A DNA stretch of 64,000 nt, taken from the NCBI GenBank assembly GCA_964016885.1, contig OZ024749.1, forward strand, positions 30,194,001 to 30,258,000. The letters run 5' to 3'. Position numbers and translations under genes: made by a program. Shown here one piece after another: positions 4,533 through 47,781 of the stretch. Positions within the stretch are counted from its first letter, which is position 1. Each line of letters begins with the position of its first letter. The notes beneath the pieces are model-generated. The model had not been told where the DNA came from. It ran no database searches and worked only from the letters and a program-made list of their open reading frames with translations. Source of the DNA: Eledone cirrhosa (Eukaryota).

Positions 4533-4666
4533 AAAGTGAGGTTTTTTATTACAAAATGAAAAATAACCGAGGTGTTCTACACGAGTGAAAGTATAAAGAA
4601 AAAGAGGTGAAATCGAAAATGCAACTGGAGTCTTATTTTAAAATAATATATATATTTATTTGGTTC

Positions 4667-4702
4667 CTTTACCGGTTTCGCAGTTCTTCTGCTTTTCAAA
4701 AG
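4667..4702 (-). ncRNA. Minimal type I hammerhead-like motif (family E)
   Basis: Minus strand: CTT TTGAAAA GCAG aagaa CTGC GAAA CCGG TA AAG; palindromic stem III ACCGGT; stem I is only 3 bp. Confidence 0.5.
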
Positions 4703-5091: not shown

Positions 5092-8000
5092 GGATAAAAC
5101 TCGTTGACAACGTAAACTCCATTCCACTTATTCTAGTAGGCTTTTATATTTATATGTGAGCTGATAGAGTACTGTCTAAGGATTTACAGAAACCCATGAA
5201 GCTAGATTTAACACCTTTCTAGTGGGTCCGGGTATGATTTTACATTCATTTAAATTATTGACGTGTTGTTTTATTGATATTTTTTATCTGTTTGGCCCGA
5301 ATCTTCCTTTATCGATTTTGAATCGTATGGTTGATTGTAGACTTGTTCTATATGTGACGGTATTTTAACGATAGTTATAGCTCTGATTCATCTGAATTAT
5401 TGAGCCCTCTGCCGCTCATATCGGATTTCGTTTTTCGTTAACTCGTGCGCCGATTTTTCGATACTCGATCTTTCTAATATATTTAGCTCTGGACATAGCT
5501 ATCCACCAGTTAATTTTATTGCTCATATTTTGTCGATTCTATTGAGTGATGAATAGCTTTTGTTTTATTTTAACATGTCTATTGAGCACTCTAATTCGAT
5601 ATGTGTATTTCCACATTCACTCGAATTATTTTCGCGGATATGGGGGTCATCTCCCTTGTCTAATGCCATGTGCGTTTTTCACCGCTAGTTGACTCCTTTG
5701 CCGCCAGGATAAAACTCGTTGACAACGTAAACTCCATTCCACTTATTCTAGTAGGCTTTTATATTTATATGTGAGCTGATAGAGTACTGTCTAAGGATTT
5801 ACAGAAACCCATGAAGCTAGATTTAACACCTTTCTAGTGGGTCCGGGTATGATTTTACATTCATTTAAATTATTGACGTGTTGTTTTATTGATATTTTTT
5901 ATCTGTTTGGCCCGAATCTTCCTTTATCGATTTTGAATCGTATGGTTGATTGTAGACTTGTTCTATATGTGACGGTATTTTAACGATAGTTATAGCTCTG
6001 ATTCATCTGAATTATTGAGCCCTCTGCCGCTCATATCGGATTTCGTTTTTCGTTAACTCGTGCGCCGATTTTTCGATACTCGATCTTTCTAATATATTTA
6101 GCTCTGGACATAGCTATCCACCAGTTAATTTTATTGCTCATATTTTGTCGATTCTATTGAGTGATGAATAGCTTTTGTTTTATTTTAACATGTCTATTGA
6201 GCACTCTAATTCGATATGTGTATTTCCACATTCACTCGAATTATTTTCGCGGATATGGGGGTCATCTCCCTTGTCTAATGCCATGTGCGTTTTTCACCGC
6301 TAGTTGACTCCTTTGCCGCCAGGATAAAACTCGTTGACAACGTAAACTCCATTCCACTTATTCTAGTAGGCTTTTATATTTATATGTGAGCTGATAGAGT
6401 ACTGTCTAAGGATTTACAGAAACCCATGAAGCTAGATTTAACACCTTTCTAGTGGGTCCGGGTATGATTTTACATTCATTTAAATTATTGACGTGTTGTT
6501 TTATTGATATTTTTTATCTGTTTGGCCCGAATCTTCCTTTATCGATTTTGAATCGTATGGTTGATTGTAGACTTGTTCTATATGTGACGGTATTTTAACG
6601 ATAGTTATAGCTCTGATTCATCTGAATTATTGAGCCCTCTGCCGCTCATATCGGATTTCGTTTTTCGTTAACTCGTGCGCCGATTTTTCGATACTCGATC
6701 TTTCTAATATATTTAGCTCTGGACATAGCTATCCACCAGTTAATTTTATTGCTCATATTTTGTCGATTCTATTGAGTGATGAATAGCTTTTGTTTTATTT
6801 TAACATGTCTATTGAGCACTCTAATTCGATATGTGTATTTCCACATTCACTCGAATTATTTTCGCGGATATGGGGGTCATCTCCCTTGTCTAATGCCATG
6901 TGCGTTTTTCACCGCTAGTTGACTCCTTTGCCGCCAGGATAAAACTCGTTGACAACGTAAACTCCATTCCACTTATTCTAGTAGGCTTTTATATTTATAT
7001 GTGAGCTGATAGAGTACTGTCTAAGGATTTACAGAAACCCATGAAGCTAGATTTAACACCTTTCTAGTGGGTCCGGGTATGATTTTACATTCATTTAAAT
7101 TATTGACGTGTTGTTTTATTGATATTTTTTATCTGTTTGGCCCGAATCTTCCTTTATCGATTTTGAATCGTATGGTTGATTGTAGACTTGTTCTATATGT
7201 GACGGTATTTTAACGATAGTTATAGCTCTGATTCATCTGAATTATTGAGCCCTCTGCCGCTCATATCGGATTTCGTTTTTCGTTAACTCGTGCGCCGATT
7301 TTTCGATACTCGATCTTTCTAATATATTTAGCTCTGGACATAGCTATCCACCAGTTAATTTTATTGCTCATATTTTGTCGATTCTATTGAGTGATGAATA
7401 GCTTTTGTTTTATTTTAACATGTCTATTGAGCACTCTAATTCGATATGTGTATTTCCACATTCACTCGAATTATTTTCGCGGATATGGGGGTCATCTCCC
7501 TTGTCTAATGCCATGTGCGTTTTTCACCGCTAGTTGACTCCTTTGCCGCCAGGATAAAACTCGTTGACAACGTAAACTCCATTCCACTTATTCTAGTAGG
7601 CTTTTATATTTATATGTGAGCTGATAGAGTACTGTCTAAGGATTTACAGAAACCCATGAAGCTAGATTTAACACCTTTCTAGTGGGTCCGGGTATGATTT
7701 TACATTCATTTAAATTATTGACGTGTTGTTTTATTGATATTTTTTATCTGTTTGGCCCGAATCTTCCTTTATCGATTTTGAATCGTATGGTTGATTGTAG
7801 ACTTGTTCTATATGTGACGGTATTTTAACGATAGTTATAGCTCTGATTCATCTGAATTATTGAGCCCTCTGCCGCTCATATCGGATTTCGTTTTTCGTTA
7901 ACTCGTGCGCCGATTTTTCGATACTCGATCTTTCTAATATATTTAGCTCTGGACATAGCTATCCACCAGTTAATTTTATTGCTCATATTTTGTCGATTCT

Positions 8001-11000
8001 ATTGAGTGATGAATAGCTTTTGTTTTATTTTAACATGTCTATTGAGCACTCTAATTCGATATGTGTATTTCCACATTCACTCGAATTATTTTCGCGGATA
8101 TGGGGGTCATCTCCCTTGTCTAATGCCATGTGCGTTTTTCACCGCTAGTTGACTCCTTTGCCGCCAGGATAAAACTCGTTGACAACGTAAACTCCATTCC
8201 ACTTATTCTAGTAGGCTTTTATATTTATATGTGAGCTGATAGAGTACTGTCTAAGGATTTACAGAAACCCATGAAGCTAGATTTAACACCTTTCTAGTGG
8301 GTCCGGGTATGATTTTACATTCATTTAAATTATTGACGTGTTGTTTTATTGATATTTTTTATCTGTTTGGCCCGAATCTTCCTTTATCGATTTTGAATCG
8401 TATGGTTGATTGTAGACTTGTTCTATATGTGACGGTATTTTAACGATAGTTATAGCTCTGATTCATCTGAATTATTGAGCCCTCTGCCGCTCATATCGGA
8501 TTTCGTTTTTCGTTAACTCGTGCGCCGATTTTTCGATACTCGATCTTTCTAATATATTTAGCTCTGGACATAGCTATCCACCAGTTAATTTTATTGCTCA
8601 TATTTTGTCGATTCTATTGAGTGATGAATAGCTTTTGTTTTATTTTAACATGTCTATTGAGCACTCTAATTCGATATGTGTATTTCCACATTCACTCGAA
8701 TTATTTTCGCGGATATGGGGGTCATCTCCCTTGTCTAATGCCATGTGCGTTTTTCACCGCTAGTTGACTCCTTTGCCGCCAGGATAAAACTCGTTGACAA
8801 CGTAAACTCCATTCCACTTATTCTAGTAGGCTTTTATATTTATATGTGAGCTGATAGAGTACTGTCTAAGGATTTACAGAAACCCATGAAGCTAGATTTA
8901 ACACCTTTCTAGTGGGTCCGGGTATGATTTTACATTCATTTAAATTATTGACGTGTTGTTTTATTGATATTTTTTATCTGTTTGGCCCGAATCTTCCTTT
9001 ATCGATTTTGAATCGTATGGTTGATTGTAGACTTGTTCTATATGTGACGGTATTTTAACGATAGTTATAGCTCTGATTCATCTGAATTATTGAGCCCTCT
9101 GCCGCTCATATCGGATTTCGTTTTTCGTTAACTCGTGCGCCGATTTTTCGATACTCGATCTTTCTAATATATTTAGCTCTGGACATAGCTATCCACCAGT
9201 TAATTTTATTGCTCATATTTTGTCGATTCTATTGAGTGATGAATAGCTTTTGTTTTATTTTAACATGTCTATTGAGCACTCTAATTCGATATGTGTATTT
9301 CCACATTCACTCGAATTATTTTCGCGGATATGGGGGTCATCTCCCTTGTCTAATGCCATGTGCGTTTTTCACCGCTAGTTGACTCCTTTGCCGCCAGGAT
9401 AAAACTCGTTGACAACGTAAACTCCATTCCACTTATTCTAGTAGGCTTTTATATTTATATGTGAGCTGATAGAGTACTGTCTAAGGATTTACAGAAACCC
9501 ATGAAGCTAGATTTAACACCTTTCTAGTGGGTCCGGGTATGATTTTACATTCATTTAAATTATTGACGTGTTGTTTTATTGATATTTTTTATCTGTTTGG
9601 CCCGAATCTTCCTTTATCGATTTTGAATCGTATGGTTGATTGTAGACTTGTTCTATATGTGACGGTATTTTAACGATAGTTATAGCTCTGATTCATCTGA
9701 ATTATTGAGCCCTCTGCCGCTCATATCGGATTTCGTTTTTCGTTAACTCGTGCGCCGATTTTTCGATACTCGATCTTTCTAATATATTTAGCTCTGGACA
9801 TAGCTATCCACCAGTTAATTTTATTGCTCATATTTTGTCGATTCTATTGAGTGATGAATAGCTTTTGTTTTATTTTAACATGTCTATTGAGCACTCTAAT
9901 TCGATATGTGTATTTCCACATTCACTCGAATTATTTTCGCGGATATGGGGGTCATCTCCCTTGTCTAATGCCATGTGCGTTTTTCACCGCTAGTTGACTC
10001 CTTTGCCGCCAGGATAAAACTCGTTGACAACGTAAACTCCATTCCACTTATTCTAGTAGGCTTTTATATTTATATGTGAGCTGATAGAGTACTGTCTAAG
10101 GATTTACAGAAACCCATGAAGCTAGATTTAACACCTTTCTAGTGGGTCCGGGTATGATTTTACATTCATTTAAATTATTGACGTGTTGTTTTATTGATAT
10201 TTTTTATCTGTTTGGCCCGAATCTTCCTTTATCGATTTTGAATCGTATGGTTGATTGTAGACTTGTTCTATATGTGACGGTATTTTAACGATAGTTATAG
10301 CTCTGATTCATCTGAATTATTGAGCCCTCTGCCGCTCATATCGGATTTCGTTTTTCGTTAACTCGTGCGCCGATTTTTCGATACTCGATCTTTCTAATAT
10401 ATTTAGCTCTGGACATAGCTATCCACCAGTTAATTTTATTGCTCATATTTTGTCGATTCTATTGAGTGATGAATAGCTTTTGTTTTATTTTAACATGTCT
10501 ATTGAGCACTCTAATTCGATATGTGTATTTCCACATTCACTCGAATTATTTTCGCGGATATGGGGGTCATCTCCCTTGTCTAATGCCATGTGCGTTTTTC
10601 ACCGCTAGTTGACTCCTTTGCCGCCAGGATAAAACTCGTTGACAACGTAAACTCCATTCCACTTATTCTAGTAGGCTTTTATATTTATATGTGAGCTGAT
10701 AGAGTACTGTCTAAGGATTTACAGAAACCCATGAAGCTAGATTTAACACCTTTCTAGTGGGTCCGGGTATGATTTTACATTCATTTAAATTATTGACGTG
10801 TTGTTTTATTGATATTTTTTATCTGTTTGGCCCGAATCTTCCTTTATCGATTTTGAATCGTATGGTTGATTGTAGACTTGTTCTATATGTGACGGTATTT
10901 TAACGATAGTTATAGCTCTGATTCATCTGAATTATTGAGCCCTCTGCCGCTCATATCGGATTTCGTTTTTCGTTAACTCGTGCGCCGATTTTTCGATACT

Positions 11001-11012
11001 CGATCTTTCTAA
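5092..11012. repeat. Tandem array of a 615-bp unit, ~9.6 copies
   Basis: GGATAAAACTCGTTGACAACG recurs at 5092, 5707, 6322, 6937, 7552, 8167, 8782, 9397, 10012 and 10627; no differences seen by eye; no long ORF; (TA)n on both sides. Confidence 0.97.
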
Positions 11013-11028
11013 TATATATATATATATA

Positions 11029-11145
11029 TATAGAATTCGCTACTTAATCTATATATGACATGTAACAAACTAATTGCATATATATATATATATATGCAAT
11101 TTGTTTGTTACATGTCATATATAGATTAAGTAGCGAATTCTATAG
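11029..11145. repeat. Palindrome with ~50-bp arms around a (TA)n centre
   Basis: TATAGAATTCGCTACTTAATC...TGCA(TA)nTGCA...GATTAAGTAGCGAATTCTATA. Confidence 0.85.
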
Positions 11146-11310
11146 AGCTGTGTTGTTATTATAAAACAAATGTTTTTGTTTTTTACATTTCTGTATTAGT
11201 TTTCACAGTGATGGATTTTATTTTAATTGAACAACCAATGCCATTCAGCTGATAATATCACTGTGTATATAATGAATAAAAGTATATATATATATATATA
11301 TATATATATA

Positions 11311-13589: not shown

Positions 13590-13793
13590 GTTTTAATATA
13601 GATGAGATTCTACAGGACTAGAACTGTTTCATTCTTCAGAAACCATCAGGAATCCCTGAGATTCCTGATGATTTCTGAAGAATGAAACAGTTCTAGTCCT
13701 GTAGAATCTCATCTATATTAAAACTTTTATACTCTGCTATGTATTGAGTACCTTACTTACTGTGGTTACCTCCGATTCAACCCGGAATAACGT
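13590..13793 (+). mobile_element. Palindromic Penelope-like terminus (family C) with two divergent hammerheads and a ~65-bp tail
   Basis: Inverted arms 13590-13654 and 13660-13724; tail TTATACTCTGCTATG...CCCGGAATAACG is shared with 15420-15487 and 21326-21393. Confidence 0.8.
13658..13710 (+). ncRNA. Type I hammerhead ribozyme motif (family C)
   Basis: Stem I GAGATTC/GAATCTC, core CTGATGA, stem II TTC-tgaa-GAA, GAAA, stem III ACAG/CTGT, GUA triplet; the minus-strand copy at 13604-13654 has CTGATGG. Confidence 0.8.
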
Positions 13794-14482: not shown

Positions 14483-14544
<62 letters not shown>

Positions 14545-14548
<4 letters not shown>

Positions 14549-15487
14549 TTAATATAGAAGAGATTCCAATTACATAGAGCCCCAGTCCGGGGATTGGTTT
14601 CGGAGGTGGTTGGCTTATTTAGTTTAGAGTTGTGGTTGGCTATATTCCTAGCTAGGTTAGGTGTGGTGGAGTAAGACAGTCTTATAGTGTTCTTATTAAA
14701 GATGGTGTAGTACCTATGTTGTATGGGGAAGTGTAATTTCAGTAAAGTGAAGAAAATCCTAGCTATCGGAGTAGATACCTCTCTATTGAAGGGAGGGTTG
14801 TACCAGCTAATCTGCCTATGTCTATTCCTCCTCTGCAATTTTGCGGTGGTTTCTAGGTAAGTTATCTTATCTTTAAATCCGCTACGGGCTAGGGCGTCAT
14901 TGTAGTAGGAGGCAGATGCATTAAAAATATCTTTGTTGGCGGAGAGGCCAGATATTCTAATAGAGACGCTTTTTACTAGGTTATCAGTAATGTTTTGGGG
15001 GTGGTTTGAATTAACATTAATATATTTAAGGGACTCGTTAGGTTTGTGGTACGGGTAATAGAGGGAAGTATCTAGGTCGAGAGTGACATCTAAGAAGTTG
15101 GCCCTAGTCAAATTAGAATCTATAGTAATACTAAATCCTAGATTAGAGAAGAAAGAGCTTAAGTTTTTCCGAAACCCATCGGTGGTTCTGGGGCTAACCT
15201 TATGCAGGGCGAAGAGGCCGTCGTCTCGGTATAAACCTCCAGTAAGGCCGGTAAAGAGGTTCTTCAGGTTATGTAGGATGTACAGGCCCACAAGGTCGCT
15301 AATTTCAGCCGAGTCACTCGCCCCCATGCTAACGTCAAATGGGGTCTGAGATTTCTTGTTGATCCAGTAAGATCCATCGGGGGGCTCTATGTAATTGGAA
15401 TCTCTTCTATATTAAAACTATTATACTCTGCTATGTATTGAGTACCTTACTTACTGTGGTTACCTCCGATTCAACCCGGAATAACGT
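14545..15487 (-). mobile_element. Truncated Penelope-like (Naiad-type) element with inverted family-C termini, in (TA)n
   Basis: 39-bp inverted repeats 14545-14583 and 15381-15419, family-C tail on the right, RT fragment inside. Confidence 0.85.
14567..15380 (-). pseudogene. Penelope-like reverse transcriptase fragment (core to thumb)
   Basis: Open frame FDVSMGASDSAEISDLVGLYIL...GGLYRDDGL...ANFLDVTLDL...PYHKPN..SNHP...WYNPPF...IRLSYSTT, ending at GALCN. Confidence 0.9.
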
Positions 15488-15572
15488 ATATATATATATA
15501 TATATATACACACACATACACACACACATATATATATACATATATGTATATATACGTACATGTATATATACG

Positions 15573-21120: not shown

Positions 21121-21616
<496 letters not shown>

Positions 21617-23224: not shown

Positions 23225-23466
23225 ATAGAAATATTAAAACAATGAAATTCAACACAAAACTGTTAATTCATAATTATTTCAGAAGACGGCGGGTAGTGAA
23301 GTCGTATGTATATTTTTTTTACTATGATATTTTGTAATATGTTTTACATAGATCAATAATTGAATGAACAAACAGGGAACAACTCCCCAGAAACGATCGT
23401 AAGATAATGAGTTTTACTATGAATTAACAGTATTGTGTTTAATTTCATTGTTTTAATATTTCTATT
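23225..23466. repeat. Imperfect ~46-bp inverted repeats around a ~150-bp spacer, next to (TA)n
   Basis: ATAGAAATATTAAAACAATGAAATT..CTGTTAATTCATA versus TATGAATTAACAG..AATTTCATTGTTTTAATATTTCTAT. Confidence 0.7.
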
Positions 23467-23672: not shown

Positions 23673-23675
<3 letters not shown>

Positions 23676-23731
23676 GTTTTAATATAGAAGAGATTCTACA
23701 GGACTAGATCTGTTTCATTCGTGAGAAATCA
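23673..23731 (-). mobile_element. Family C terminus fragment (partial hammerhead)
   Basis: Reverse complement TGATTTCTCACGAATGAAACAGATCTAGTCCTGTAGAATCTCTTCTATATTAAAACT. Confidence 0.7.
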
Positions 23732-24932: not shown

Positions 24933-26510
24933 TGTTTCTTTATTATCCACAGGGGCACAAAAGAAGGGGACAAATAAAAAGGGGGAAGTTTACATACAAT
25001 AAAAACGTGTAAAATATTATCACAAATCCAATTTAAAAATTTATCGATTTTCCCCAATAGGGGGAGACATTACATATGGGTAACACATACCACCGAAAAA
25101 AAATGTGCAACCCTCATCTCCAGGAGTACGAAGAGTTTGTACTCCTTTCCTCTCCTCCTCTTTTTCCTCAACCTACAGGCTGATATAGAGAGAAGGCCCA
25201 TTAACTCGGGCCATTCTCGCCACTTTCACCCACCTTTCATAAAACTTGCTGGGGTACAGCACCTCTCTCTCCATTCTGACTCTTCTTCCAAAGTGGTATT
25301 TGAAAAAAAGAATCAATTGTTGGCCGGAGAGAAAGGTGTCTGACCTCAGCCCTTTCAACCTTGTCCACCATACAACCTCTTTTGCCATAGCTATCACACA
25401 AAGGAAAACCGCCTCTCCTTCGTTTTTGAAGGAGGGTGGCGGTTTGATCATGACAATGGACTCGGTGGTCAACTGGATTGGTCCCACCCGCGACAATAGT
25501 CGTTCCACATAGCCCCACAGGTCGGTGACGCTCGGGCAGTGTATGAATGGGTGCGCGATGGTTTCTTTGTCTGGTACGCACCTCGGACAGATCTTTTTTG
25601 CAGGGTCCCTGCTCGGGCGCCCATGTCTGTAGAGCTTGTCTCGAAGTGGTACAGCTCCTCGGTAGCACTGCCAGGCCAGGGACTTTTGGAAGTTGTCCAT
25701 CGGTCCCGGGCGGAAGGTCCTACCGAACAGACTGCCCAGTTCGTCTTCCTCTACGCCCAGAGTTTCACCGAGCACGTCGTCGCACTTGCTGCGGATCAAC
25801 CCTCTATAGAATGACGAAGTGGAGTCTCCACTGATTGCCGGGTCCGCCTGCCAGAGGGCTGTGAGCGCCTGAGCACATTCGATGTGCCAGTCGCCTATTT
25901 TCCTCGGTCTTTGCTTAACCCAGGACTGCAGCTCGGTCAGCGAGACGGGTCGTGGGAAGGCTCGCCTCACGAACGGGGCCCACACCGGTTGTCCGGTGAG
26001 GAATACGTAGAGATGCTGCAGCCTGAACGCGTGTTTGCGCATCATCAGCCATGGCATCCCCAGCCCTCCGTTAGAAGGGCGTTGGCAGCAGATGGATCTT
26101 CTCACCACAGGAACCCGCCTCTTCCAAAGGAATTGGAAGAACGCGCGCTCCATTTTGGCGAGCGTTTTGGCTGGACAAGGCACGACGGTCAAGCGGTAGT
26201 AGATGGCGGACGCTATAAAAGTGTTCGCCACCTCCGCTCGACCGTTCAATGATAGTTTGCACTCGGCCCACTTCTGGGTGAGTGCAAACACCTTGGCCGA
26301 CACCTCGTTCCAGTTCTTCTCCACCTGGAGGTCCGGACCAAACCAGACCCCGAGCAGCTTTACTGGTCCTTCCGTCCAGCGGCCGAAGTCGCCATCGGAA
26401 GGCATCGGTTTGCCTCTCCACGATCCGAGTTGCAAACCGATGGACTTGTCCCGGTTCAGCTTCGCTCCTGTGAACCTTTCGTATTCCTTCAGTAAGGTGC
26501 CGACTTCCTC
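24933..26510 (-). mobile_element. 5'-truncated Tx1-like non-LTR retrotransposon with (TATC)n on both sides
   Basis: ORF2 C-terminal part homologous to 38351-41788; 3' end AATAAAGAAACA-TATC; 5' junction has ATC microhomology with the repeat. Confidence 0.93.
25173..26510 (-). pseudogene. Truncated ORF2 (post-YADD RT region and C-terminal zinc motif)
   Basis: GAKLNRDKS..VKLLGVWF...GGLGMP...CPRC..ETIAHPFIHC. Confidence 0.9.
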
Positions 26511-26580
<70 letters not shown>

Positions 26581-32475: not shown

Positions 32476-35400
32476 ATGGCTATGCTAAGAGTAGGCTGTT
32501 TAAATGCGCGTGGCCTGCGCTCAACTTGGAAGCAAGCAATGCTTCTAAATGACCTCAGGTCACAACGTATAGATGTGATGGTTATTTGCGAGGCCCGGAT
32601 CAGCAACGTGCGACAGCTGGCCCCCACCTTTGATGACTTTGAGATGCACGCATCTCTCTGTCAGCCCGGAGGTGGGGGTGGAGTTGTCGTTCTGCTGCAA
32701 AAACATCTGGGTCTCGCAACACAGATGGTACATTTGGACCCGGAGGGTCGACTAGTGGTTCTGGACCTTGGCAGTGGTAAAGGCGGAGCGTTTAGGTTGG
32801 TAGCCGCCTACGGCCCTTTCGGGTCAATGCGGCCGGACTTCTTCCATCGTCTGGAGACTTTTCTAGGGACGTCCCGCTCCTTGCTATTAGTGGGGGACTG
32901 GAATGGTATCCTAGATGCACGCTGGGACTACGTAGGGGCCTGCCCCGATAGAGAGGGGTGTAATAGCCTCGAAGGGTTAATCGGTCGATTTGACCTGGCC
33001 GATAGATATCGACTAGATTTTCCGACTGCGCCAACCTGGACTTGGGCAAATCGTAGCGGATCATCTAGGTCGTACCTAGATAGGTTCTTAGTTAGAATTA
33101 AGGATAAGGACTTTTTAAGTTGTCCAAAAATGTGCATGGTTGGCTATTCAGACCACAAATTAGTGACCTGCATGGTCAACCTTGACAGAACTCATAGACA
33201 GGGCCCCGGTTACTGGAAGCTCAACTTGTCCTTGCCGGCAAGTAGAGCCTACAGGAATCGGATTAGTACGTTAGTTAAGGAACGGTTGACTGGAGCGATC
33301 GTCAACAGCAGGTGGTGGGTATCTCTAAAGAGAGAGATTAGAGTAGTCTCGATAGAATTTAGTAAGGTTCTAGCTGCGGATAGGAATAGGAAGGAAAGGG
33401 AGCTAATAGATAGAGTAGAAGAGGCAATTAGAAGCGGCGACGTGGCCAGAGTGCTAGCGTCGAGAACGGCTTTGAGCCAGTTTTTTGACGCGAAGCACGA
33501 AGGCTGCGTTGTCAGAAGTAAAATACGTGCTCTAGGGAACGAGGGGACCAAAGCTGTTAGCTGGGCCCGCGTGACAGAGGCCAACAGTGGAACTAAATCC
33601 ACCATCCGGTCTTTGCGAGACCTGGATGGACGGGCGATTCTTGAGCCTAAGCAGATGTGTGAGGCCTTTCAAAGGCACTTTGCCCGACTGTTCGGAAGGG
33701 GCGGGGAGCCGGTTGGGAACGTGGACTTCGGTCCATACCTCGACGGCCTGCCGCGCCTCTCGGACAGGGAGGCGAAGCCCTGCGAGAAGCCGATTTCGGC
33801 CGCTGAGATAGAGGACGTGCTGAGCCAATGCGGCAAACGCAAATCCTCGGGTCTCGATGGTCTTCCTTACGAATTATATCTAGCTATGCCGGACTTGTTC
33901 CCCGATCTCCTCGAGGCGGTCTACTGCAACTGGCAACAGAACGGGAGAATTCCCTGTACTGTGACCAAGGGCGTAGTCACGCTAGTGAGGAAGGACGAGA
34001 ACAAGGGGGACGAAATAAGTAACTTCAGGCCCATAACTCTGCTAAATACAGAGTTACAGATTTTGGCCAAGGTGCTAGCAAAGAGGTTGGCGCTTGTCGT
34101 GGGCAACCTGGTGGGAGATGCGCAGACATGCGCTATCCCGTTCAGGTCCATCCATGACAACCTCCACCTCATGCGATACATCATAGAGAGGGTTGGGAAC
34201 GAACCCGGCTTTGGTGGGGCTCTGATCAACTTGGATCAATCTAAGGCGTTCGATAGGGTCGAATATGGTTACCTGGATGCGGTGCTAGTGGCGGCAGGAT
34301 TCGGACCCGTTTTCAGGGGCTGGATCACTGCTATGCACAGCAGCCGCATCTGCTCTAGGGTCAAGGTGAACGGCTACCTCTCGGAGCCGTTCAAAATCGC
34401 GCGGTCCATCCGACAAGTTGCCCTCTCTCCTCCCTTCTGTATGTGTTGACTCTCGAGCCACTACTGCGGAAGTTGGAGTTGTTGCAGGGCATCCCTTTGG
34501 AACCGGGATTGCGGAAAGCGGTGTCGGCCTACGCCGATGACGTGACAGTAATGGTGTCGACGGCCTCCGAAATCGAGGCGGTCGGCACCTTACTGGAGGA
34601 GTACGAAAAGTTCACAGGGGCTAAGCTGAACCGGGACAAGTCGATCGGTTTGCAACTCGGCACGTGGAGGGGCAGACCGATGCCCTCCGATGGCGTCGTC
34701 GGACGCTGGACGGAGGGCCCGGTGAAGTTGCTCGGGGTCTGGTTCGGACCGGACCTCCAGGTGGAGAAAAACTGGGCGGAGGTTACGAACAGGGTGTTTG
34801 CACTGACCCAGAAGTGGGCCAGTTGCAAACTATCCCTGAAAGGTCGGGCGGAGGTGGCGAACACCTACATAGCGTCCGTCATCTACTACCGCCTGACCGT
34901 AGTGCCCTGCCCAAGGGAAACCCTCACCAAGATGGAGCGCGCGCTCTTCCAATTCCTTTGGAAGAGGCGGGCTCCTATGGTGAGGAGATCCATCTGCTGT
35001 CAACACCCTTCGAAAGGAGGGCTGGGGATGCCGTGGCTAATGATGCGTAAACACGCATTAAGGCTACGGCACCTCTACGTATTCCTCACCGGACAACCGG
35101 TGTGGGCCTCGTTTGTGAGACGAACCTTTCCCAGACTCGTCTCACTCACCGAGCTGCAATCCTGGGTCAAGCAAAGACCGAGAAAACTGGGCGCCTGGCA
35201 CACTGAGTGTGCCCAGGCGCTCACCGCCCTCTGGCAGGCGGATCCGGTTATCAGTGGAGACTCCACCGCAACATTCTATAGAGGGCTGGTACGCAGCAGG
35301 TACGACGACGCCCTCGGAGAAGCCCTAGACATGGAGGAGGACGAACTGGCCAGCCTGTTCGGTAGGACATTCAGCCCGGGACCTATGGACAACTTCCAGA

Positions 35401-35912
35401 AGTCCCTGGCCTGGCAGTGCTACCGAGGGGCTTTACCCGTTCGAGAAAGGCTCTACAGACACGGGCGCCCGGGTAGGGACCCCGCCAAAAAGATCTGTCC
35501 CAGATGCGTGTGCGACGAGGAAACCGTTGCACACGCATTGGTACACTGCTCGGGCGTAGCCGATCTGTGGGGCTATGTCGAACAACTGCTGTCAAGGGTG
35601 GGACCGATCCGGTTGACCACCGAGTCTATTGTATTGATCAAGCCGCCTCCCCCCTTCAAATTGGAAGCAGAGGCGGTGTTTCTGTGCGTAATAGCCATGG
35701 CGAAAGAGGTTGTATGGTGGACGCGTCTGAAAGGACTGAGGTCAGGCACCTTTCTCTCTGGCCAACAACTGGTCCGTTTCTTCCGTTATCATTTCGGAAG
35801 AAGGATCAGGATGGAGAGAGAGGTGCTGCACCCCAGCCGTTTCTATGAAAGATGGGTGAAAGTGGCGAGAATGGCCCGTGTGAATGGGCCTTCACTCTAC
35901 ATCAGACTATAG
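32476..35912 (+). pseudogene. E1 ORF2 (APE endonuclease + reverse transcriptase), 1-bp frameshift at the RQGCPLS motif (~34415)
   Basis: GCLNARG, GDWNG, SYLDRF, SDHK, FRPITLLN, LDQSKAFDRV, YADD, CPRC..HALVHC. Confidence 0.92.
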
Positions 35913-36439
35913 GTGAGGAAGATGAAAGACCAAGGGAGCACCCCTTCTCTGTGCTCCTGAGGAGAAGGGTTGCACACTTTTTTCGGGGGTGTATGCGACC
36001 CCCCAAGGCGCCTCCTCTCTATTGAGGATTTTGTTATAAATTTTATTTTTTGTTATATCTTATTTTATTTTTATATTTTGTTATTGCCTCCTCCTTATTG
36101 AGGACGCCTTTTTGTGTAAACTCCCCCCTTTGTACTTGTCCCACTTTTGATGCCCTAGTGGCAAATAAAAGAAACATATCTATCTATCTATCTATCTATC
36201 TATCTTGATAATCTAGCTGTCGTCTGTTCTACAGTGTGGATGTCATTCACTTCGCACAGAAGTTTTGTTCAAATTTATTGAGGAAATTTTGTGAGTTCAA
36301 ACTTAATTTTGATACAATTGTGTAGCTTGACCCTCCGTCTGAACTGTCAGGCGGTGGGTCAGCTCATCTTTACCCCTCCTAGAGGTGAAAAACCTGTTTT
36401 AAAAAATTTTGTGTAAAAAATTTCAATCGTCTAACAGAA

Positions 36440-38350: not shown

Positions 38351-41300
38351 ATGGATGTGTTAAGAGTAGGATGTTTGAATGCACGTGGCCTGGGCTCAAC
38401 TTGGAAGCAAGCAAAGCTTCTAAATGACCTCAGGTCATGTAGTATAAATGTAATGGTTATCTGTGAGACTCGAATCAGCGTCATGCGGCAGCTGGCCCCC
38501 ACCTTCGATGACTTTGAGGTGCATGCATCTCTCTGTCAACCTGGAGGTGGGGGTGGGGTTGTCGTGCTGCTGCAAAAACACCTGGGTCTTGCCGTACAGG
38601 TTGTGCACTCGGACCCGGAGGGTCGTTTGTTGGTGCTAGACGTTGGCAGTAGTGAAAGTGCGGCCTTGAGACTGGTCGCCGTCTACTCCCCTTTCGGAGC
38701 TGAACGGCCCGACTTCTTCCAGCGTTTGGAGACTTTTCTGGGAACGTCGCGTTCCCTGCTTCTAGCGGGGGATTGGAATGACATCCTGGATGCACGTTGG
38801 GACTATGCAGGAGCATGTCCTAATAGAGGGGGGTGTAACAGCCTCAAGGGGTTACTCGACCGTTTTAACTTGGTCGATAGATATCGACTAGATTTTCCAA
38901 CTGTGCCTACCTGGACTTGGAGAAACCACAGTGGTCAATCTAGATCGTACTTAGATAGATTCTTAGTTAGAAGTAAGGATAGGGACATATTAAGCTGTCC
39001 AGAAATGCGCACGGTTGGCTACACGGATCACAAATTAGTGACCTGCGTGGTCAATCTCGAGAAAACACATAGACAGGGTCCCGGTTACTGGAAACTTAAT
39101 TTGTCGTTACCGGCAAAAGAGACTTACAGAAACCGGATTAGCAGATTAGTTAAGGAGAGGTTGACGGGTGCAATCGTCAACAACCGATGGTGGGCATCTC
39201 TCAAAAGAGAGATTAGAACAGAATCAATAAGTTATAGCAAGATGTTAGCTGCCAATAGGAATAGAAACGAGAAAGAATTAACAGGTAAATTAGAAGAGGC
39301 AATCAAGAGCGAAGATGTGGCCAGAGTGATGGCATCGAGGACGGCCTTGAACCAGTTTTTCGATGCAAAGCATGAAGGCTGCGTCATTCGAAGTAAAATA
39401 CGTGCTCTAGGTAATGAGGGGGCCAAAGCCGTTGGATGGGCCCGCGTGACAGAAGCTAAAAGTGGAAATCGATCCACCATCCGGTCGTTGCAAGACGAAG
39501 ATGGACGAGTGATCCGGGAGCCTAAGCAGATGTGCGAGGCCTTTCAAAAGCACTTTGCCCGATTGTTCGGGGGAGGCGAGGGTCCGGGCCGGGGCGTGGA
39601 TTTCGGTCCATACCTCGACGGCCTGCCGCGTCTCTCGAACAAAGAGGCAGAGTCCTGCGAGGGACCAATCTCGGCTGATGAGATCGGAGATGCGCTGAGC
39701 CAATGCAGCAGACGCAAATCTCCAGGTCTCGATGGTATACCTTACGAACTTTATTTAGCAATGCCGGTCTTCTTCTCCGAACTCCTCGAAGCGGTCTACT
39801 GCAATTGGCAGCAGAACGGGAGAATTCCTTGTTCTGTAGCCAAGGGCGTAGTCACGCTGGTGAGGAAGGACGAGAACAAGGGGGATAGTATAAATAATTT
39901 TCGGCCCATAACCCTGCTAAACACAGAGTTAAAGATTTTGGCCAAGGTGTTAGCAAAGAGGTTGGCGCTTGTCGTGGGTGGCCTGGTGGGAGATGCGCAG
40001 ACATGTGCTATCCCATCCAGGTCCATTCACGATAACCTCCACCTCATGCGATACATCATAGAGAGGGTTGGCAACAAACCCGGCTTCGGTGGGGCCCTGA
40101 TCAACTTGGATCAGTCTAAGGCCTTCGATAGGGTCGACCATGGTTACCTGGATGCGGTGCTAGCGGCGGCTGGGTTCGGTCCTGTTTTCAGAGGCTGGAT
40201 CACTGCCCTACATAGCAACCACATCTGTTCTAGGATCAAGGTGAACGGCTACCTTTCGAAGCCGTTCGAAATCACACGATCCATTCGACAGGGGTGCCCT
40301 CTCTCCTCCCTTCTGTACGTATTGACTCTCGAGCCTTTACTGAGGAAGTTGGAGTTGTTGCAGGGTATCCCCCTGGAACTAGGATTGAGCAAAGCGGTGT
40401 CGGCCTACGCCGATGACGTAACAGTAATGGTATCAACCGACTCGGAGATCGAGGCGATCGGTACCTTACTGGAGGAGTACGAAAGGTTGTCAGGAGCGAA
40501 ACTGAACCGGGAAAAATCCATCGGGCTGCAACTCGGAACGTGGAGAGGCAAACCGATGCCTCCTGACGGTGTCGTCGGACACTGGACGGAGGGCCCGGTA
40601 AAGTTGCTTGGGGTCTGGTTTGGACCGGACCTCCAGGTGGAAAAGAACTGGAACGAGGTTACGAACAAGGTGTTTGCACTAACCCAGAAATGGGCCAAGT
40701 GTAAGCTGTCCCTAAAAGGCCGGGCGGAGGTGGCGAACATTTACATAGCGTCCGTCACTTACTACCGCCTGACTGTCGTGCCTTGCCCTAAGGAAACACT
40801 CACCACCATGGAACGCATGCTCTTCCAATTTCTTTGGAAGAAGCGTCCTCCTATGGTGAGAAGATCCATCTGCTGCCAACAACCTTCGAAAGGAGGGCTG
40901 GGGATGCCGTGGTTGATGATGCGTAGGCACGCATTAAGGCTACGGCACCTACAGGTATTCCTCACTGGTCAACCGGTGTGGGCTCCGTTCGTGAAACGAG
41001 CCTTTCCGAGACTCGTCTCACTCACCGAGCTACAGTCCTGGGTCAAGCAAAGATCCGGAAAACTGGGAGACTGGCACACTGAGTGTGCTCAGGCGCTCAG
41101 GGCTCTCTGGCAAGCGGGCCGGGCCATCGGTGGAGAATCCACCTCATCATTCTATAGAGGGCTGGTGGCTAGCAGGGGCGATGACACCCTTGGAGAGTCG
41201 CTGGACATGGAAGAAGACGAACTGGCCAGCCTGTTCGGTAGGACTTTCGGCCCAGGACCAATGGACAACTTCCAGAAGTCACTGGCCTGGCAGTGCTACC

Positions 41301-41788
41301 GAGGGGCTCTACCCGTTCGAGAGAGGCTCTACAGACACGGGCGCCCGGGCAGGGATCCCTCAAAAAAGATTTGCCCTAGATGCGTGCGTCACGAAGAAAC
41401 CGTGGCGCACGCATTGGTGCAATGTCCGGGCGTGGCTGATCTGTGGGGCTACGCCGAACAACTGCTGTCGCGGGTGGCGCCGATTAAATTGACAGCCGAG
41501 TCCGTGATGACAATCAAACCGCCTCCCCTCTTCACAAAGGAAGCAAAGGCGGTTTTTCTGTGCGTAATAGCCATGTTGAAAGAGGTTGTTTGGTGGACAC
41601 GATTGAAAGGTCTGAGGTCAGGCAACTTCCTCTCTGGCCATAGTCTGGTCTACTTCTTCCGATATCACTTCGGAAGAAGGATAAGAATGGAGAGAGAGGT
41701 GCTTGGCCACAGGCAGTTTTATGAAAGGTGGGTGATAGTGGCGAGAATGGCTCGTGTAAATGGGCCTTCTCTGTATACCATCCTGTAG
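38351..41788 (+). CDS. E2 ORF2 protein (1145 aa; APE endonuclease, RT, C-terminal zinc motif)
   Basis: GPGYWKLN, KSPGLDG, RQGCPLS, YADD, KLLGVWF, KGGLG and CPRC motifs typical of L1/Tx1. Confidence 0.96.
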   Translation: MDVLRVGCLNARGLGSTWKQAKLLNDLRSCSINVMVICETRISVMRQLAPTFDDFEVHASLCQPGGGGGVVVLLQKHLGLAVQVVHSDPEGRLLVLDVGSSESAALRLVAVYSPFGAERPDFFQRLETFLGTSRSLLLAGDWNDILDARWDYAGACPNRGGCNSLKGLLDRFNLVDRYRLDFPTVPTWTWRNHSGQSRSYLDRFLVRSKDRDILSCPEMRTVGYTDHKLVTCVVNLEKTHRQGPGYWKLNLSLPAKETYRNRISRLVKERLTGAIVNNRWWASLKREIRTESISYSKMLAANRNRNEKELTGKLEEAIKSEDVARVMASRTALNQFFDAKHEGCVIRSKIRALGNEGAKAVGWARVTEAKSGNRSTIRSLQDEDGRVIREPKQMCEAFQKHFARLFGGGEGPGRGVDFGPYLDGLPRLSNKEAESCEGPISADEIGDALSQCSRRKSPGLDGIPYELYLAMPVFFSELLEAVYCNWQQNGRIPCSVAKGVVTLVRKDENKGDSINNFRPITLLNTELKILAKVLAKRLALVVGGLVGDAQTCAIPSRSIHDNLHLMRYIIERVGNKPGFGGALINLDQSKAFDRVDHGYLDAVLAAAGFGPVFRGWITALHSNHICSRIKVNGYLSKPFEITRSIRQGCPLSSLLYVLTLEPLLRKLELLQGIPLELGLSKAVSAYADDVTVMVSTDSEIEAIGTLLEEYERLSGAKLNREKSIGLQLGTWRGKPMPPDGVVGHWTEGPVKLLGVWFGPDLQVEKNWNEVTNKVFALTQKWAKCKLSLKGRAEVANIYIASVTYYRLTVVPCPKETLTTMERMLFQFLWKKRPPMVRRSICCQQPSKGGLGMPWLMMRRHALRLRHLQVFLTGQPVWAPFVKRAFPRLVSLTELQSWVKQRSGKLGDWHTECAQALRALWQAGRAIGGESTSSFYRGLVASRGDDTLGESLDMEEDELASLFGRTFGPGPMDNFQKSLAWQCYRGALPVRERLYRHGRPGRDPSKKICPRCVRHEETVAHALVQCPGVADLWGYAEQLLSRVAPIKLTAESVMTIKPPPLFTKEAKAVFLCVIAMLKEVVWWTRLKGLRSGNFLSGHSLVYFFRYHFGRRIRMEREVLGHRQFYERWVIVARMARVNGPSLYTIL

Positions 41789-44061: not shown

Positions 44062-47000
44062 ATCAATTGAGAGTTGGCTGTTTGAACGCGCGTGGCCTGA
44101 GCTCAGCTTGGAAGCAAGCAAAGCTTCTAAGTGACCTCAGGTCACAAAGTATAGATGTGATGGTTGTTTGCGAGAGTCGGATCAGCAGCGTGAGACAGCT
44201 GGCGCCCGCCTTCGATGACTTTGAGATGCACGCATCTCTCTGTCAACCCGGAGGCGGGGGGGGGGGGGGAGTTGCCGTACTGCTGGATAAACGTCTGACT
44301 CTCGACGTACAGATTGTTCACTCAGACCCGGGGGGTCGATTACTGGTGCTGGACGTCGGAGGTGGTGAAGGCGGGGCTTTCAGACTGGTTGGTCTTTATG
44401 CTCCCTTCGGGGCGGAGAGAGCCGACTTCTTCCAACGTCTGGAGACTTTTCTAGGAACGTCGCGTTCCCTGCTTTTAGTGGGGGACTGGAATGGAATCCT
44501 AGATGCGCGTTGGGACTATGCAGGGGCATGTCCCGATAGAGGGGGGTGTAGCAGCCTCAAGGGGTTACTCGATCGATTCGACCTGGTCGATAGATTTCGA
44601 CTAGATTGTCCAACTGCGCCAACCTGGACCTGGGCAAACCGCAGTGGACAATCTAGATCGTACCTAGATAGGTTTTTGGTTAGGAGTAAGGATAGGGACG
44701 TATTTAGTTGTCCAGAACTGATCATGGTTGGCTATTCAGATCACAAATTAGTGACCTGCGTGGTCAACCTTGATAGAACGCATAGACAGGGTCCCGGTTA
44801 CTGGAAGATGAACTTGTCCTTACCGACAAAGAAAGATTACAGAAACCGGATTAGTAGCTTAGTTAAGATGCGGTTGACGGGAGCGATCGTCAACAGTAGG
44901 TGGTGGATATCTCTAAAGAGAGAGATTAGAGTAAGTTCGATAGGTTACAGTAAGGAACTAGCGGCGAATAGAAATAGGAGGGAAAGGGAGTTAACAGATA
45001 AACTAGAAGAGGCGATTAGGAGCGGAGACGTAGCCAGAGTGTTAGCGACGAGAACGGCATTGAGCCAGTTCTTTGACGCGAAGCACGAAGGCTGCGTTGT
45101 CCGAAGTAAAATACGTGCTTTAGGAAACGAGGGGACCAAAGCTGTTAGCTGGGCCCGCGTGACAGAAGCCAAGAGTGGGATTAAATCCACCATTCGGTCT
45201 TTGCGAGACCAGGATGGACGGGTGATCCTTGAACCTGAGCGAATGTGCGAGACCTTTCAAAGGCACTTTGCTCGACTGTTCGGAGGTGGCGGAGGGCCGG
45301 ACGGGGATGTGGACTTCGGTCCATACCTCGACGGTCTACCGCGTCTTTCGAGCGGCGAAGCGGAGTGCTGCGAAGGGCCAATCACAGCCACTGAAATCGG
45401 GGAAGCGCTCAGCCAATGCAGCAGACGCAAATCCCCGGGTCTCGATGGTCTACCATACGAACTTTATTTAGCTATGCCGGTCTTGTTCTCCGAACTCCTC
45501 GAGGCTGTCTATTGCAACTGGCAACAGAACGGGAGAATTCCCTGTTCTGTGACCAAGGGCGTGGTCACGCTAGTGAGGAAGGACGAGAGCAAAGGGGACG
45601 ACTTAAGTAACTTTAGGCCCATAACTCTGCTGAATGCAGAGTTACAGATTTTGGCCAAGGTGTTGGCGAAGAGGTTGGCGCTTGTGGTGGGTGGTTTGGT
45701 GGGAGACGCGCAGACATGCGCTATCCCGTCCAGGTCCATTCACGACAACCTCCACCTCATGCGATACATCATAGAGAGGGTTGGCTACGAACCCGGCTTT
45801 GGTGGGGCCCTGATCAACTTGGATCAATCTAAGGCGTTCGATAGGGTCGACCATGGTTACCTGGATGCGGTGCTAGCGGCGGCGGGCTTCGGACCCGTTT
45901 TCAGGGGCTGGATTTCTGCCATGCACAGTGGCAACATCTACTCTAGGATTAAAGTAAACGGCTACCTCTCGGAGCCGTTTCAAATCACCCGATCCATCAG
46001 ACAGGGGTGCCCCCTCTCCTCCCTTCTGTACGTATTGACTCTCGAGCCACTGCTGCGGAAGTTGGAGTTGCTGCGGGGCATACCCCTGGAACCGGGATTG
46101 CACAAAGCGGTCTCGGCCTATGCCGACGACGTAACAGTAATGGTGGCGGACGCCTCGGAAATCGGGGCGATCGCCACCCTACTGGAGGAATACGAAAGGC
46201 TGACGGGGGCTAAGCTGAACCAGGACAAGTCAGTCGGTTTGCAACTCGGAACGTGGAGGGGCAAACCGATGCCGTTAGACGGTGTCGTCGGGCGGTGGAC
46301 GGAGGGCCCGGTGAAGCTGCTCGGGGTCTGGTTCGGACCGGACCTCCAGGTGGAGAAGAATTGGGGCGAGGTGACGAGCAGGGTGTTTGCGCTGACCCAG
46401 AAGTGGGCCAAGTGCAAACTATCACTGAAAGGTCGGGCGGAGGTGACGAACGCTTACATAGCGTCCGTCATCTACTACCGCCTGACCGTCGTGCCTTGCC
46501 CCAAGGAAAAGCTCACCATCATGGAACGCATGCTCTTCCAGTTCCTCTGGAAGAAGCGGCCTCCCATGGTGAGGAGATCCATCTGCTGCCAGCACCCTTC
46601 GAAAGGAGGGCTGGGTATGCCGTGGCTGTTGATGCGTAGGCACGCATTGAGGCTACGGCATCTACAGGTATTCCTCAACGGTCAGCCGGTGTGGGCCCCG
46701 TTTGTGAGGCGAGCCTTCCCACAGCTCGTCTCGCTCACCGAACTGCAATCCTGGGTGAAGCAAAGACCGAGAAAACTGGGCAACTGGCACACTGAGTGTG
46801 CCCAGGCGCTCACGGCTATCTGGCAAGCGGACCCGACTGTCAGTGGAGAATCCACCTCGACATTCTATAGAGGGTTGGTGGCTAGCAGGGGCGACGACAC
46901 CCTTGGAGAGTCGCTAGGCATGGAGGAGGACGAACTGGCCAGCCTGTTCGGTAGAACTTTCGGCCCGGGACCCATGGACAACTTCCAGAGGTCCCTAGCC

Positions 47001-47501: not shown

Positions 47502-47781
47502 GTGAAGAAGTGAAGAGGAAAGGGGGAGCGCCTCCTCTCTGGGCTTCCCCCGCGAAAAGAGTTGCACACTTTTCGGGGGTATGTGCAATCCCCAACACGC
47601 CCCCTCCCTTTTGAGGACTTTTTATTGTTATATTATTATTGTTATTCCTTTTTCTTTACTCGATTTATGTAAACTCCCCCACTGTGTAAATGTCCCCTTC
47701 TTTTGTGCCCTCGTGGCAAATAAATAGAAATTTATCTATCTATCTCTTTACTGACATACCTCCCTATCTATCCATATATCT

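Follow-up and report, generated by a model that had tools for sequence, protein, structure and literature searches.

The locus examined here raises the question of how a piece of a reverse transcriptase (RT) open reading frame came to be joined bluntly to the first nucleotide that follows a predicted hammerhead ribozyme cleavage site. It lies in Eledone cirrhosa (assembly GCA_964016885.1, contig OZ024749.1), in a stretch of 64,000 nt (positions 30,194,001–30,258,000), here called the window, in which all positions below are numbered unless stated otherwise. Positions 14545–15487 represent a single insertion sited between (TA)n/(CA)n tracts, with a (CA)n(TA)n microsatellite target on the left (14484–14544), a (TA)n(CA)n one on the right (15488–15530) and two inverted arms in between. 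The left arm, on the minus strand, consists of nt +1 to +22 of the 5' UTR of a Penelope-like element (PLE) that we call family C (14545–14566, a short tail with (TA)n at its end; +1 is the first base after the predicted cut) and an 813-nt piece of the element's ORF (14567–15379, unit nt 1027–1839), which is bluntly joined to +1 at 14567/14566. The right arm, on the plus strand, contains the final 17 nt of the same ORF piece (15381–15397, unit nt 1823–1839), a blunt join to +1 at 15397/15398 and a long tail, +1 to +90 (15398–15487), which also ends in (TA)n. At the inversion centre there is a six-G run (15379–15384), one G of which is templated by neither arm and is absent from all 35 ORF copies compared. 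A 39-nt junction string (17 nt of ORF plus +1 to +22) is identical in the two arms (14545–14583, minus strand; 15381–15419, plus strand). The first-pass annotation of this DNA had located the same junction in both arms, at 14566/14567 and 15397/15398, and had described an RT frame that runs through G-A-L-C-N straight into GAATCTC; the positions are correct, and the junction is indeed a blunt ORF/+1 join.

The 813-nt piece spans the RT catalytic region, the thumb and the linker up to G-A-L-C-N, and is about 99.4–99.8% identical to the young copies L004, L047 and L041. A minus-strand frame is open from 14569 to 15378, and 268 of its 270 residues match residues 298–567 of the full ORF copy L041. 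The join splits the codon of the second Cys of a CNC motif and shows no microhomology, as the ORF goes on with C and an intact terminus has A preceding +1. That GALCN is ORF sequence, as the annotation had taken it to be, was borne out by a 17-mer that occurs 307 times in the genome: 30 of 30 fetched matches run into C-[LH]-N-K...CP and none into the terminus. The candidate explanation that GALCN instead marks a terminus subfamily was ruled out by the same matches, which were all ORF, and by a chimeric 15-mer that is found in the element only at the focal locus. This 15-mer has six genome matches, two at the focal locus and four in unrelated sequence; the focal ORF/+1 junction is unique in the genome. 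None of the public contigs spans the junction, which they neither support nor contradict, and four contig sets compared over the 5' region were uninformative. The CNC motif had also been reported from two other fragments in the window, but our scan found one other CxC..CP fragment (52588).

To place these pieces, the layout of the whole element is needed. As judged from twenty 10-kb stretches, the family-C unit runs in the order hammerhead, GUA, +1 GAATCTC, ATG at +137, 713-codon ORF, microsatellite 3' UTR and next hammerhead, with a unit length of 4,963 nt in L041. Because this layout puts the ATG at +137, the GAATCTC 'terminus' is the 5' UTR of the element. Copies in the genome stop at +22 or at +90, with (TA)n at the end, and the anchor +1 to +21 has 13,833 exact copies in the genome. 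L041 contains a single 713-aa ORF with RT (YRDD) followed by a C-terminal GIY-YIG domain (IVY...YIG); the Pfam GIY-YIG match to this ORF had an E value of 0.069, below the cut-off, and a Pfam search with the ORF fragment from the window gave no match. Among atlas neighbours at 0.96–0.99, HTH_animal was present in 25–99% of the members, GIY-YIG in 29–50% and RVT_1 in 18–77%. The ORF carries the motifs CNCLNKETC (a CxCX5C linker), SSDKTKN (DKT), CDLC (CxxC) and CMH (CxH). An endonuclease lacking the CCHH motif is a further trait of the Hydra clade; the unaligned ORF shows two Cys, eight residues apart, between IVY and YIG. A single ORF with RT and then GIY-YIG, together with DKT, CxCX5C, CxxC and CxH, is also described for the Hydra clade of C-terminal EN+ PLEs in the relevant passages of Craig et al. 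(2021, PMC8557442), and so are a hammerhead in the pseudo-LTR, (TA)n targets, and tandem and inverted copies with tails; (TA)n targets, pseudo-LTR tandems, inverted arms and tails are all present in family C. Family C differs in having RWR at the place matching the RWK motif of that clade, and in its length: Hydra clade elements tend to be short (<3 kb; PMC8557442), whereas the family-C unit exceeds this on account of a microsatellite 3' UTR of about 2.5 kb, about half of the unit. From motifs and layout the element fits a Hydra-like PLE, and we use 'Hydra-like' because the unit is longer than the clade's usual <3 kb.

The reference copy of the family-C ribozyme is an intact type I hammerhead at 13658–13710 (plus strand), in which helix I pairs 13658–13664 with 13704–13710, CUGAUGA occupies 13665–13671, GAAA 13684–13687 and GUA 13701–13703, with the predicted cut at 13703/13704. 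A second intact copy lies at about 21259–21311 (plus strand, predicted cut 21304/21305). In the sequence compared, the commonest form of CUGAUGA...GAAA...GUA gave 113 motif matches. Helix I is AGATTC/GAATCT in 86 of 138 copies and covaries, as seen from a compensatory GGCTTC/GAAGCC in two copies and an 8-bp form, GGGCTTC/GAAGCTC, at L143. Helix III consists of 3 bp plus an A-U pair with a CTAG palindrome in the loop, and helix II is weak (3 bp, no G10.1-C11.1). The minimum-energy fold retains helix I and not the core fold (an alternative fold is predicted), and a scan of the window at Rfam gathering scores gave no hammerhead match. By its core, its triplet and its covarying helix I, family C fits a type I hammerhead, with cleavage predicted between GUA and +1. 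The position of GAATCTC directly 3' of GUA, as annotated earlier, was found in five of the seven family-C ends in the window, where +1 follows the GUA of a type I hammerhead; the other two ends are the two focal junctions. The comparator chosen at the time (23673–23731, minus strand) is a family-C end that has GAAA, helix III and GUA but is 5'-truncated and lacks the CUGA core and the helix I 5' strand.

If cleavage left its mark on the genome, the ends of all family-C copies might be expected to peak at GAATCTC, and such a histogram had been proposed. Breakpoints were sampled from -10 to +4 with a pattern that gave 334 matches, 100 of them listed, and with sub-searches per position. No sharp peak appeared at +1: uncollapsed for arm pairs and with several bins read by eye, the raw matches numbered 8 at +4, 12 at +3, 16 at +2, 27 at +1, 22 at -1 and 34 at -2, under filters that differ between bins (+1 drops C at -3, -1 drops G at -3, and +3/+4 drop G at +1). 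The sub-search for +2 to +4 gave 42 matches, from which 6 small indels were set aside. About 14 of the first 100 rows listed, read by eye, fell at +1 only through helix I self-complementarity, the reverse complement of the helix I 5' strand being equal to +1 to +7; the filter of the +1 sub-search (27 matches) removes most such rows. After correction for the filter we estimate the exact +1 junctions at about 70–100, which is <1% of the 13,833 copies. The filtered breakpoints (334 against 13,833 anchors) indicate that at least 97% of the copies keep the 3' half of the hammerhead, as did 26 of 30 in a sample. None of 30 unselected copies started at +1, and the peak of the wide histogram was at -45 to -47 (9 of 30), some 29 nt downstream of a TATA box at -75. 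Lacking a sharp +1 peak, the all-copy histogram does not support the cleavage claim.

The possibility that +1 is itself the transcription start was considered and found unlikely: the TATA box would place the start near -46, and few solo copies begin at +1 (L137, L138). The boundary at -45 to -47 (seen in 9 of the 30 family-C copies L057–L086; see also L041:1659–1690) may be the transcription start or, alternatively, a hot spot of helix I fold-back. If -46 is the start, the hammerhead would sit at the 5' end of the RNA, and cleavage would take off a 46-nt capped leader.

A search for insertion scars at the site gave 55 matches, many of them from a GAAGCC/GAAGCT subfamily, with about 5 of 24 events at the cut site, and these scars are suggestive only. 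In otherwise intact hammerheads the scars GT-TT-G (twice), GTA-G-G (three times) and GTA-T-G (once) were seen. At L118, L131, L126, L128, L140 and L241 the hammerhead is otherwise intact, with one or two bases added or altered precisely at the cut site; these are possible scars of imprecise re-joining.

A different picture emerged when the junctions were classified by partner, which was done for 108 non-hammerhead family-C junction events from -10 to +4. Sense host RNA or distant element sequence was the partner in 7 of the 27 events at +1 versus 1 of 81 elsewhere (p 0.0002), the seven including the focal locus and two loci that share one 3' UTR junction; the lone case off +1 (L152, in which +1 to +134 is joined back to the site) is compatible with +1. 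A conservative recoding, in which the focal locus was dropped, the two loci with the shared junction were merged and a SINE partner (L159, window -2 to +2) was counted against, gave 5 of 25 versus 2 of 81 (p 0.008). Among the 27 matches at +1, the GC-rich partners are sense 18S rRNA; such a partner was first taken for the ITS2/28S boundary, which was wrong. Rfam gave no match on 14 junction loci, because the 18S pieces sit in an expansion segment. A second pattern retrieved a third 18S join and a U6 join, with full-length RF00026 abutting +1. In L268 the U6 sequence begins at U6 nt 1 within the insertion and is therefore RNA-derived. T was found at -1 in 18 of the 27 junctions at +1.

The survey was also run in the reverse direction, U6 being listed across the genome regardless of the element (48 Rfam matches and 84 pattern matches). 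After array copies, two probable solitary genes and paired arms had been removed, 57 dispersed U6 loci were left, all of which were inspected. In fourteen of them the partner is a hammerhead-bearing family, and the join lies at +1 in 13 and at -1 in one; by family they are C/C' 2, B 2, D 2, E 4, F 1, G 1, H 1 and I 1. Two of the 13 (L295 and L286) were placed from alignments, the automatic scan having mis-registered both, and L310 is a weaker match (12/16). All 14 copies have exactly five T. Of the other U6 loci, one short element accounts for 12 and SINEs for 8 (in 7 of these the join is near the 5' start); 2 abut another tail, and 10 have no assigned partner and no element ORF within 1.4 kb; some partners of these ten could be hammerhead families absent from the 1.3 Mb of compared sequence. 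On two LINE-like elements (7 and 4 loci), which served as a control, U6 was found at 4 and 4 different places; one of these elements also has a single site hit three times, at the same internal base (L299, L303, L324), which in the absence of a recognised ribozyme may be another kind of cut site or a pause site. About 33 U6 genes lie in an array with a spacing of about 1.8 kb (G000:C19:31778865-31840348).

The 18S survey listed 46 matches, all but 10 of which were inspected. Of 13 short dispersed 18S fragments, six are joined to families C, A and D, four by an exact blunt join at +1 and two with microhomology windows that include +1; L130 is not independent, since it seeded the search. Three of the four exact 18S ends are UU. 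Taken together, 17 of 20 U6 and 18S joins are exact at +1, over nine hammerhead-bearing families in all (binomial p 3e-17 under a null of our own choice, 14 equally likely positions). In the U6 and 18S chimeras the 3' end of a sense cellular RNA is joined to the 5' end of a retroelement inside one insertion; the focal locus is not a strict member of this U6/L1-type class because its partner is element RNA. Six of the 20 chimeras carry the same junction in each of their two arms, L130 has in addition a decayed second arm, and the two-arm layout of the focal locus recurs in the 18S chimeras L124, L216, L222 and L215. At L107 both arms stop at +1 with a 12-nt filler between them. An element of about 65 nt takes about 11 U6 and one 18S (L298, L300, L313, L314, L318, L319, L327, L337, L288, L340, L294, L223); these joins lie within a few bases of its start, where no hammerhead was seen. 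It was also observed that 11 of the 13 short dispersed 18S pieces (L124, L130, L177, L215–L217, L219–L222, L226) end within about 12 nt of one another, in one loop at 18S nt ~410–422 (L179 numbering), a clustering that is partly ascertained as the query ended there. RNA breakage in vivo may occur at this loop, which belongs to an expanded V2 region.

The families that take part are not equally well-formed. Read by eye, A, C, D, E and I have a CUGANGA or UUGA(A/G/U)AA core, a helix II, GAAA and a helix I of 4–8 bp, with GCAA replacing GAAA in D. Family B is a minimal form with little helix I and almost no helix III, at the low end of a range that reaches 4 bp and a long loop in A. Families F and G have one intact copy each. 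Family H (L111, L162, L308; window 23380–23415) has only the GAAAC...GUA half visible, with no CUGA-type core within 60 nt; in it GAAACGATCGTA is followed by the U6 join, and it is possibly a ribozyme with half a core or a long helix II. A link to an ORF was shown for family C only, none of the links beyond it being convincing. Motifs that are non-canonical, among them the UUGAAAA core and the GCAA of D, are followed after GUA by U6 and 18S joins in D (L101:~190-250, L217, L295, L311) and E (window ~4640–4680), which suggests that they cut.

The precision of the junctions makes it very probable that a free RNA 5' end existed at +1. Hammerhead cleavage products carry a 5'-OH, and the reading towards which we lean is that the hammerhead cleaved itself and that its 5'-OH was ligated, in an RtcB-like reaction, to RNA ends before reverse transcription. 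The ribozyme would cut the element RNA in the cell and leave 5'-OH at +1, the partner RNA would end in a 2',3'-cyclic phosphate, like mature U6, and at the focal locus a host ligase, probably RtcB, would seal the 5'-OH to the 3' end of a broken element transcript. The element RT would start twice on the joined RNA, at +22 and at +90 and on opposite target strands, would pass the join on each occasion and extend for 813 and 17 nt within the ORF piece, after which the cDNAs would be joined head to head. The ORF piece could belong to the same molecule, as a 1,839-nt circle, or stem from another one; a +8T allele does not separate these origins, as it is also found in young ORF-flanking copies. 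According to the relevant parts of Moldovan et al. (2019, PMC6789731), U6 with five T is the form that ends in a cyclic phosphate, and RtcB joins this U6>p to 5'-OH L1 RNA; RtcB also circularises hammerhead-cut retrozyme RNA in vitro (PMC7229834). The focal partner is element RNA, whose end would have carried a cyclic phosphate on this reading. Identical junctions in both arms, at the focal locus as in the six chimeras, are most simply explained if the join was covalent RNA. Moreover, none of the five host-RNA joins of C/C' is at -45 to -47, although this is the commonest 5' boundary. Against this reading stand the lack of a sharp +1 peak among all breakpoints and of +1 starts in the 30 unselected copies, the frequent T at -1, the weak helix II with its Rfam and folding results, the single intact copies of F and G and the coreless H, and the recurrent U6 joins in elements without a recognised hammerhead (about 11 of 12 for the short element, 3 of 7 for a second one, and 7 close to SINE 5' starts), as well as the report by Frangieh et al. 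(PMC11167929), in the part concerned, that cleavage is dispensable in vitro and that no RNA-seq ends lie at the site in anole. On balance, the first-pass reading of the locus as a fossil of in vivo self-cleavage gains support from the sense RNA partners at +1 and not from the all-copy histogram, and RNA-type partners show neither the random scatter nor the terminus subfamily that it had named as speaking against it. Of the mechanisms it offered, template jumping and ligation or circularisation are both retained, ligation being mildly favoured.

A jump of the RT after the same cleavage, with no ligase involved, is less probable and still a serious competitor: RT starting from +22 or +90 would run off at +1 and continue on a nearby RNA 3' end, aided by untemplated nucleotides. 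It accounts for the +1 precision as well as ligation does. The frequent T at -1 fits jumps guided by A-tailing, and the partners that end in U (U6 and three of the four exact 18S ends), the small scars in otherwise intact hammerheads (GT-TT-G, GTA-G-G, GTA-T-G) and the arms of L107 that both halt around a filler point the same way. SINE RNA 5' ends carry a triphosphate, which RtcB could not take directly, and the U6 copies joined to SINE starts therefore indicate that template jumps probably occur in this genome too; for R2 RT, jumping is described as requiring added nucleotides (PMC8857657, in the part concerned). However, identical junctions in two arms would demand two identical jumps or a splinted second pass, and the lack of host-RNA joins at the far commoner boundary at -45 to -47 (0 of 5), the five T in every U6 and the partners that end in G (focal locus) or C (L124) speak against jumping as well.

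It is improbable that the focal junction arose at the DNA level by chance at +1, through a tandem deletion, repair at integration or an assembly error, even if the U6 and 18S chimeras are cleavage products. Generic breakpoints do amount to about 8–34 matches per position around the site, a tandem ORF-hammerhead-5' UTR copy with a 3.1-kb deletion would yield the same letters, and the junction is known from the assembly alone. But the join is blunt and without microhomology, generic breakpoints are inverted arms, local slips and flanks, a distant sense partner was found in 1 of 81 events off +1, that one (L152) being +1-compatible, and the two-arm layout is that of the four 18S chimeras. Least probable is a pause without any cleavage, in which RT stalls on uncut RNA at the foot of helix III and switches template: although most copies keep the hammerhead 3' half, U6 junctions recur in elements without a hammerhead and cleavage is dispensable in vitro (PMC11167929, in the part concerned), such a stall should retain the unpaired -1 base, which 17 of 20 joins drop exactly, the site is constant across families despite the range of helix III from almost none (B) to 4 bp (A), and the hot spot in the element without a hammerhead varies by a few bases.

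Cleavage followed by ligation connects the chimeras with several known systems, here compared through the relevant parts of each paper. Like the U6/LINE-1 chimeras (Moldovan et al. 2019, PMC6789731), they contain a U6 copy in sense orientation, with a short run of T, that was fused to the RNA 5' end of a retroelement and inserted along with it, and the chemistry of U6>p and 5'-OH would fit here. The L1 junctions are scattered and need an unknown endonuclease, whereas here a ribozyme predicted in the element itself pins the 5' end down to a single nucleotide, and 18S fragments and RNA of the same element also serve as partners. The motifs of the present families share with the PLE pseudo-LTR hammerheads (Cervera and de la Pena 2014, PMC4209133) type I and minimal forms, a palindromic helix III and a U3-A8 core variant. 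Those authors proposed that the cut ends are ligated into circles that template tandem insertions, and stated that in vivo evidence was lacking; the chimeras represent genomic evidence of cut ends as templates, but do not show circles. As with Poseidon PAc in vitro (Frangieh et al. 2024, PMC11167929), the tail is set by two internal RT starts (+22 and +90 here), extension takes place on both target strands and the targets are AT-rich; in contrast to that system, in which cleavage is dispensable, a minor class of insertions here seems to come from cleaved RNA. Non-LTR retrozymes (Cervera and de la Pena 2020, PMC7229834; bioRxiv 10.64898/2026.07.22.740005) likewise involve hammerhead-cut RNA and are linked to PLE pseudo-LTRs, and their hammerhead-cut monomers are circularised by RtcB in vitro. 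They are, however, small non-coding tandem repeats with demonstrated circular RNAs, whereas here the RNA of an autonomous element is joined to foreign or broken RNA. In the passages concerned of PMC8557442 the function of the hammerhead is called unclear and no cut-site chimeras are mentioned. Chimeric U6 retrocopies and PLE hammerheads are each known, and a literature search, judged mostly by titles and the beginnings of abstracts, found no report of U6 or rRNA chimeras at PLE hammerhead sites.

The published record leaves it undecided whether animal Penelope hammerheads, weak as they are, cleave in vivo (PMC4209133, PMC8557442 and PMC11167929, in the parts concerned). Foreign RNAs at exactly +1 in nine families are hard to explain without cut RNA that is present in germline cells and is reverse-transcribed there, and the junctions make it likely that these ribozymes are active in living cells and that their cleaved RNA ends up copied in the genome. 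As RT starts only 22–90 nt from the cut, a longer copy of such RNA is possible only once it has been attached to a second RNA, so that cleavage is bound up with ligation or jumping. The focal locus itself is one dead copy, and its value is as a pointer to the chimera class. Such chimeras represent a cheap computational assay of ribozyme activity and cut position in any genome, and flag non-canonical cores. Tentatively, cleavage and ligation may even be the normal route of Penelope RNA, with monomers sealed GUA>p to +1 into scarless circles or tandems and the chimeras as rare mis-ligations. If so, this would explain pseudo-LTRs and tails, and the U6 chimeras would be a genome-wide, single-nucleotide footprint of ribozymes active in vivo, non-canonical ones included: those with a UUGAAAA core, with GCAA for GAAA (D) and without a visible core (H).

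Some repeats were noted alongside. A tandem array of units of about 78 nt, each with a family-C hammerhead, is retrozyme-like (L241, G000:C28:30744500-30753500), and public contigs contain a 77–78-nt back-joint over the same region. A 34-nt minisatellite is composed of the family-C cut site and the short tail (L191–L212, G000:C3:273474205-273476344). Within the window, positions 5092–11200 hold ten identical 615-nt tandem units, whose perfect identity could reflect a young array or an assembly artefact. Another repeat is present in four copies of 1.2–1.3 kb, 81–85% alike and in both orientations, at 25171–26513, 34572–35914, 40448–41640 and 46161–47503.
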